Of a stretch of DNA of 64,000 nucleotides, positions 24,106 to 24,170 are shown piece after piece. Below the pieces are notes generated by a model. It was not told where the DNA came from. It saw nothing but the letters and a program-made list of their open reading frames with translations, and ran no database searches. Source of the DNA: Escherichia coli (GTDB lineage: Bacteria; Pseudomonadota; Gammaproteobacteria; Enterobacterales; Enterobacteriaceae). Position numbers and translations under genes: made by a program. The stretch's first letter is position 1; each line of letters begins with the position of its first letter. Where the stretch lies: assembly GCF_045037415.1 (NCBI RefSeq), contig NZ_CP173438.1. One strand, given 5' to 3'.

Positions 24106-24170
24106 GTTGGAGTCATTACCATCGAAACGTTCATCCAGCGCCATGACATGTCCATTCGGGAAGCAGCACA

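Follow-up and report, generated by a model that had tools for sequence, protein, structure and literature searches.

IS1 and an associated 5,519-bp deletion very probably stranded the last cistron of a D-tagatose operon in an ST131-type Escherichia coli chromosome

Genes and features between yhdT and accC

Within the 64-kb stretch of Escherichia coli DNA under study (hereafter the window), the genes run in the order panF, yhdT, a sugar kinase gene, deoR, IS1, an epimerase-annotated gene and accC (25309-26658, minus strand), a core gene in convergent orientation at which the island ends. As the reference intact locus we used the annotated locus of E. coli SK1144 (L001), in which accC lies at 10189-11538. 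The kinase gene next to yhdT is the downstream partner of deoR and encodes the second, tagatose-kinase-like pfkB-type sugar kinase of the intact locus; it occupies 21473-22408 on the minus strand, is intact and shares 100% DNA identity with L001 1602-2537, and its product scores 340.8 bits against NCBIfam TagKinase, below the 420-bit cut-off. The mechanically called reading frame for this gene is longer (21473-22483, minus strand, 336 aa), exceeding the annotated 311 aa by 25 codons and overlapping the 3' end of deoR, and we consider the shorter annotated start (21473-22408) the more likely of the two. The gene for the DeoR/GlpR-family regulator (22440-23270, minus strand; L001 2569-3399) is likewise intact, with its product matching DeoR-family NCBIfam models below their cut-offs.

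Between the start of deoR and IS1 there remain 82 of the 340 bp that separate deoR from the aldolase gene in the intact locus (23271-23352, equal to L001 3400-3481). Promoter scans place a deoR promoter-like site, TTCAAA-16-TATAGT, in this retained DNA on the minus strand (23316 to 23289), so that deoR and its partner kinase gene still have a promoter-like site of their own. On the plus strand of the same 82 bp, a TTGAAA-19-GACAAT match at about 23312-23342 overlaps the deoR site and points into IS1; it has a score of 8.4 and a poor spacer, and judged by its position it might send some transcripts into insA and past it.

The IS1 element is complete and is the sole copy within the 64-kb window (23353-24120, plus strand). 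It measures 768 bp and is bounded by imperfect inverted repeats, the left reading GGTGATGCTGCCAACTTACTGAT and the right, in reverse complement, GGTAATGACTCCAACTTATTGAT, with the last letters of the right repeat (...AAGTTGGAGTCATTACC) terminating at 24120. Its insA is intact (23408-23683, 91 codons), a -1 frameshift motif of the A6C type (AAAAAAC) lies at 23659, and the insB frame stays open to the TAA at 24103-24105, an arrangement that agrees with the insA/insB architecture described in PMC12428005. Both frames are directed towards the epimerase-annotated gene. An outward-facing, -35-like hexamer, TTGGAG, is located within the right inverted repeat at 24107-24112, 8 bp from the end of the element, and agrees with TTGACA at 3 of 6 positions. 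No 8-9 bp target-site duplication surrounds the element: the 9-mer to its left reads CGAAAAGAA and that to its right ATCGAAACG. Since a missing duplication is expected after an IS1-associated deletion, its absence argues against a simple insertion and not against the identity of the element.

Downstream of IS1, a gene of 348 codons (24171-25217, plus strand) is intact and encodes a protein of the DUF4432 "aldose 1-epimerase family". At the DNA level it shows 100% identity to its intact counterparts in SK1144 (WP_000787058.1) and other strains, and its product matches Pfam DUF4432 (PF14486) over its full length (residues 29-329 to model positions 2-303 of 304, score 348.8, E = 2.4e-104). In the Pfam scan of the 348-aa protein DUF4432 was the only domain at E <=10 and the GalM-type Aldose_epim profile was not matched; the NCBIfam scan matched no family. 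The nearest solved structure is 3ty1 (E = 4.5e-33), a structural-genomics entry labelled "hypothetical aldose 1-epimerase", the epimerase role of the homologue ECOLIN_RS18670 is described as putative (PMC9720028), and the two papers that mention DUF4432 do not take up its function in title or abstract. Among the five distinct contexts listed for exactly the same protein, four carry intact upstream kinase and transporter genes and one is a contig broken at a piece of IS1 that lies upstream of the permease gene.

The original prediction had described this gene as lying 50 bp beyond IS1 and as being no truncated fusion, and both points are borne out by the sequence: exactly 50 bp (24121-24170) separate the end of IS1 at 24120 from the ATG at 24171-24173, a TGA at 24144-24146 shares the frame of this start codon, and the reading frame is complete and identical to its SK1144 counterpart. 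The 50 bp, however, are coding sequence. Translation of 24121-24174 yields 17 codons followed by TGA (IETFIQRHDMSIREAAQ*), which is the exact C-terminus of the operon kinase of the intact locus (L001 8092-9054), and the kinase TGA overlaps the epimerase ATG as ATGA. The full-length L001 kinase scores 412.9 bits against NCBIfam TagKinase, just under the 420-bit cut-off. Because these 50 bp belong to the last 17 kinase codons, the absence of a promoter there is expected; ancestrally, the DUF4432 gene had no promoter of its own in this interval and formed cistron six of an operon. The TAA that ends insB (24103) shares its reading frame with the kinase remnant (VGVITIETFIQRHDMSIREAAQ). An 8-codon mini-ORF also runs from an ATG at 24148 to the TGA at 24172, ending over the epimerase ATG with no obvious ribosome-binding site of its own, and is probably meaningless.

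Comparison with the intact D-tagatose cluster

In the intact SK1144 locus panF, yhdT, the sugar kinase gene and the DeoR/GlpR regulator gene lie on one strand, whereas the other strand carries genes for a tagatose-bisphosphate aldolase, a substrate-binding protein, an ABC ATPase, a permease, a sugar kinase and an aldose-1-epimerase-family protein, followed by the convergent accC. Direct alignment showed that L001 1-3481 corresponds to 19872-23352 of the window and L001 9001-19280 to 24121-34400, both at 100% identity, and that the intervening 5,519 bp (L001 3482-9000) occur nowhere in the 64-kb window. The missing segment comprises 258 of the 340 bp of the deoR/aldolase control region, the whole of the aldolase, binding-protein, ATPase and permease genes, and 303 of the 320 kinase codons, so that the six-gene operon is reduced to its epimerase gene and 54 bp of kinase sequence. 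In the window the start codons of deoR and the epimerase gene are consequently predicted to lie 901 bp apart, as opposed to 5,652 bp in the intact locus. We considered whether the segment had been inverted or relocated instead of deleted; within the 64-kb window this is ruled out by the absence of the 5.5 kb and of a second IS1. Further along the right flank, between accB and acuI, a yedZ/msrQ-like pseudogene fragment of the cytochrome b family (about 27544-27930; L001 12424-12810) is annotated in related genomes and has the same sequence in the window.

The intact locus corresponds to a known system, the tag D-tagatose utilisation cluster of the phylogroup B2 strain Nissle 1917 (EcN; Ha et al. 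2022, iScience, PMC9720028). In that strain accC and yhdT flank the cluster, whose six genes share a strand while deoR and a kinase gene occupy the opposite one; the cluster was found in about 93% of B2 genomes and is reported as a hallmark of the phylogroup. On tagatose all six genes are induced by a factor of more than 40, which exceeds 1,000 for the first three, and the DeoR protein of the cluster is regarded as a putative regulator (PMC9720028). The window resembles the EcN cluster in its accC/yhdT site, in its divergent deoR-kinase pair and in having the DUF4432 gene, a homologue of ECOLIN_RS18670, as the last gene; in its ST131 form the missing segment is 99.3% identical to the Nissle 1917 cluster, and the deleted aldolase matches GatY/tagatose-bisphosphate aldolase NCBIfam models above their cut-offs. 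The window differs from EcN in retaining only the sixth gene, with IS1 standing in place of the promoter region, the aldolase gene, the three genes of the ABC transporter and 303 of the 320 codons of the kinase gene.

We also surveyed 5,426 complete E. coli genomes, by megablast with positions 22400-25400 and in searches with each IS1 junction as a 140-bp query. The two sides of IS1 were matched separately, and none of the 5,426 genomes covered the 22400-25400 query in one piece. Neither junction occurred in any of the 5,426 genomes, which yielded no progenitor and no identical allele; the lone full-coverage junction match, in strain 20409, proved to be a different insertion about 540 bp away. 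Each of the flanks themselves (23.3 kb to the left of IS1, 24.9 kb to the right) matches several complete chromosomes at 100% identity, among them strains explicitly named O25b:H4-ST131, which identifies the window as ST131-type E. coli. As IS1 and the deletion are the sole difference between this locus and its relatives, the event must be very recent. Among the same 5,426 genomes the cluster is essentially all-or-none, with the epimerase gene found in 1,421 and at least 80% of the 5.5-kb segment in 1,420, making an orphan epimerase gene exceptional.

At least four other, independent IS1 insertions break the same cluster in other E. coli. The element lies in the ATPase gene of O25b:H4-ST131 2017_APHA, in the kinase gene of 2406_w1_hybrid and 20409, and in the binding-protein gene of EC556, EC571 and EC581, while one draft contig stops at part of an IS1 located upstream of the permease gene (IS1 sites in the loci compared: L008 4279-4976, L009 6318-7015, L010 7056-7753, L002 8406-9103 and L007 3-227). 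None of these insertions shares a junction with the window, and several of the strains carry cluster proteins identical to those of SK1144. The simple insertions in 2017_APHA, 2406_w1_hybrid, 20409 and EC556 are like the window in that IS1 inactivates the tagatose operon; unlike the window, these strains keep all of the cluster DNA, with 777 extra bp (768 + 9) in the two that were measured, and the window alone has lost the genes in between. Repeated hits on the cluster agree with the enrichment of IS1 reported in ST131 genomic islands (PMC8764528). The supplementary IS1-site text covered for that paper makes no mention of the tagatose locus, and among the entries listed there those on DeoR concern only yciT/osmB.

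Transcription of the stranded gene

From consensus matches, the putative operon promoter can be placed in the 258 bp that the control region has lost, where the best plus-strand candidates for a native promoter (L001 3513-3548) are located. The deleted DNA also holds a 21-nt direct repeat, TGAAAAATAAAT(G/T)AA..., whose copies at L001 3522-3542 and 3582-3602 lie 60 bp apart; the repeat might be an operator of the DeoR type, or no more than AT-rich repetition.

We then ran a consensus scan and a position-weight scan, the latter scoring all -35/-10 pairs with spacers of 15-19 bp over 24080-24185. Neither found a usable sigma-70 promoter in 24121-24170, in agreement with the earlier reading of the gap. 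A single promoter-like match is present there, ATGACA-18-CACAAT (24143-24172), which agrees with 9 of 12 consensus positions and scores 8.4, a value reached by chance in about 7% of 106-bp windows of this sequence; its -10 element overlaps the start codon, so that transcripts would start inside the reading frame. It had further been suggested that expression depends on IS1, through read-through from insAB or through a hybrid promoter built on the terminal TTGGAG. The first of these routes stands: judged from sequence, any transcription of the DUF4432 gene must come from or through IS1. The hybrid promoter does not, as TTGGAG has no -10 partner at 15-19 bp, every pairing scores 0 or less, and the consensus scan reports no such site. 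The best partner, GTTCAT (spacer 16), lacks the key A at position 2 and gives -0.08, followed by TTCATC (17) at -2.2 and TCATCC (18) at -5.6. The window therefore supplies the outward -35-like hexamer of a hybrid promoter but no -10 element at 16-18 bp.

These results are in keeping with what has been reported for IS1. Its ends carry an outward -35 that is able to combine with a -10 in the neighbouring DNA (Prentki et al. 1986, cited by PMC8764528 and PMC9330008), and its own promoter is described as "extremely weak" and InsA-repressed (PMC12428005). In ST131, an upstream IS1 in the same orientation increased transcription of afaA alone, where a good hybrid promoter forms with an adjacent -10, whereas transcription of osmB was lowered and that of ugd unchanged (PMC8764528). 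The window is like the afaA case in having a same-orientation IS1 upstream, an ST131 background and a -35-like hexamer 8 bp from the end of the element; lacking a -10 at a workable distance, it resembles instead the osmB and ugd cases, in which IS1 is not activating.

Other features of the region were also assessed. Scanning the plus strand between 23200 and 24400 for intrinsic terminators gave none, a partial Shine-Dalgarno sequence (GGGAAG, 24158-24163) survives before the DUF4432 ATG, the RNA fold of 24090-24215 is no more stable than shuffled sequences (z = 0.16), and an Rfam scan of 22000-26000 returned no structured RNA or leader at E <=1. Transcription of the DUF4432 gene would then be at most low, unregulated and IS1-dependent.

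Origin of the allele and its consequences

We consider it very likely that, in an ST131-type chromosome, IS1 and an associated deletion of 5,519 bp destroyed the accessory D-tagatose operon between yhdT and accC and stranded its distal DUF4432 cistron. The deletion may have arisen from a single IS1 insertion followed by an adjacent deletion through intramolecular transposition, or from recombination between two directly repeated IS1 copies; the sequence is compatible with both routes, which are reviewed in section 5.2 of PMC9330008, where loss of the direct repeat is given as typical of IS1 intramolecular deletions. Like the adjacent deletions and recombination products described for IS1 (Turlan and Chandler 1995, as cited in PMC9330008), the window has one IS1 left, flanking DNA abutting the IS ends exactly and no repeat, and it shows nothing unusual compared to known IS1-mediated deletions. 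Such an event would deprive the DUF4432 gene of its tagatose-inducible promoter and of its translational coupling to the kinase gene through the ATGA overlap. With no hybrid promoter expected to form at the right end of IS1, the transcription that remains would consist of low-level read-through from the InsA-repressed IS1 promoter or of stray transcription entering the element, leaving the gene weakly expressed or silent. The orphan gene is probably functionless and has probably not decayed because the event is so recent.

Several alternatives have to be weighed against this deletion. The original prediction implied that IS1 had simply inserted before a free-standing mutarotase gene, with a hybrid promoter or insAB read-through driving expression. 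The same-orientation element 50 bp upstream and the known capacity of IS1 ends to provide outward -35 boxes for fusion promoters (PMC8764528, PMC9330008) fit such a history, but the absent target duplication, the replacement of 5,519 ancestral bp by IS1, the place of the gene as the sixth cistron of an operon (PMC9720028) and the lack of a hybrid -10 at 15-19 bp (the best, GTTCAT, scoring about 0) refute a simple insertion with a hybrid promoter; the read-through component is kept, as it belongs equally to the deletion. Very slim is the chance that two IS1 copies around an intact 5.5-kb segment were collapsed into one during assembly and the segment dropped. Merging of identical IS copies is a known failing of short-read assemblies, and a collapse would give the same sequence, likewise with no target duplication; it would, however, need two independent IS1 insertions within one 5.5-kb stretch, none of the 5,426 genomes carries IS1 at either junction, and the resolved rRNA operon of the window points to a finished or long-read assembly.

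A further possibility is that ATGACA-18-CACAAT (24143-24172) acts as a real internal promoter and renders expression independent of IS1. Its match to 9 of 12 consensus positions, a score that falls in the top 7% of 106-bp windows and the conservation of the site as native coding sequence speak for it, yet a start 6-9 nt past the -10 would fall within the reading frame and give an mRNA without the start codon, the first 33 codons offer no further in-frame ATG, and the 18-bp spacer and the C at the first -10 position weaken a site of a kind for which chance matches are common. We regard such a promoter as extremely unlikely. We assign a similarly small probability to the idea that IS1 read-through keeps the DUF4432 gene on at a constitutive low level for a purpose independent of tagatose, with the deletion endpoint just upstream of the ribosome-binding region selected and not due to chance, although this remains a shade less implausible than the internal promoter.

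On the deletion that we favour, the orphan gene has very probably been separated from the regulated promoter that served it natively, and it is probably also uncoupled from the putative DeoR control named in the original prediction, a change secondary to loss of the pathway. The regulator would itself be left without its presumed target operon. As the strain lacks the transporter, the operon kinase and the aldolase encoded in the cluster, D-tagatose use is predicted to be lost, and the strain should be unable to grow on this sugar, a prediction that follows the deletion and complementation experiments of PMC9720028. The main biological consequence would accordingly be loss of the D-tagatose pathway and not the deregulation of one gene.

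Collectively, the allele is a recent, strain-specific lesion of the kind produced by ordinary IS-driven gene loss, absent from 5,426 complete genomes. IS1, IS1-associated deletion, the tag cluster and the dependence of IS1 activation on a correctly placed -10 are all already known, and the current understanding of IS1 and promoter formation is unchallenged. The value of the finding lies mostly in annotation: the gene should be labelled as what is left of a deleted operon, with a D-tagatose-negative phenotype predicted for the strain. Independent IS1 hits on the tag cluster recur in several strains, some of them explicitly ST131, and in an unrelated pig lineage, and these repeated hits suggest that the tagatose pathway is dispensable in at least some niches.
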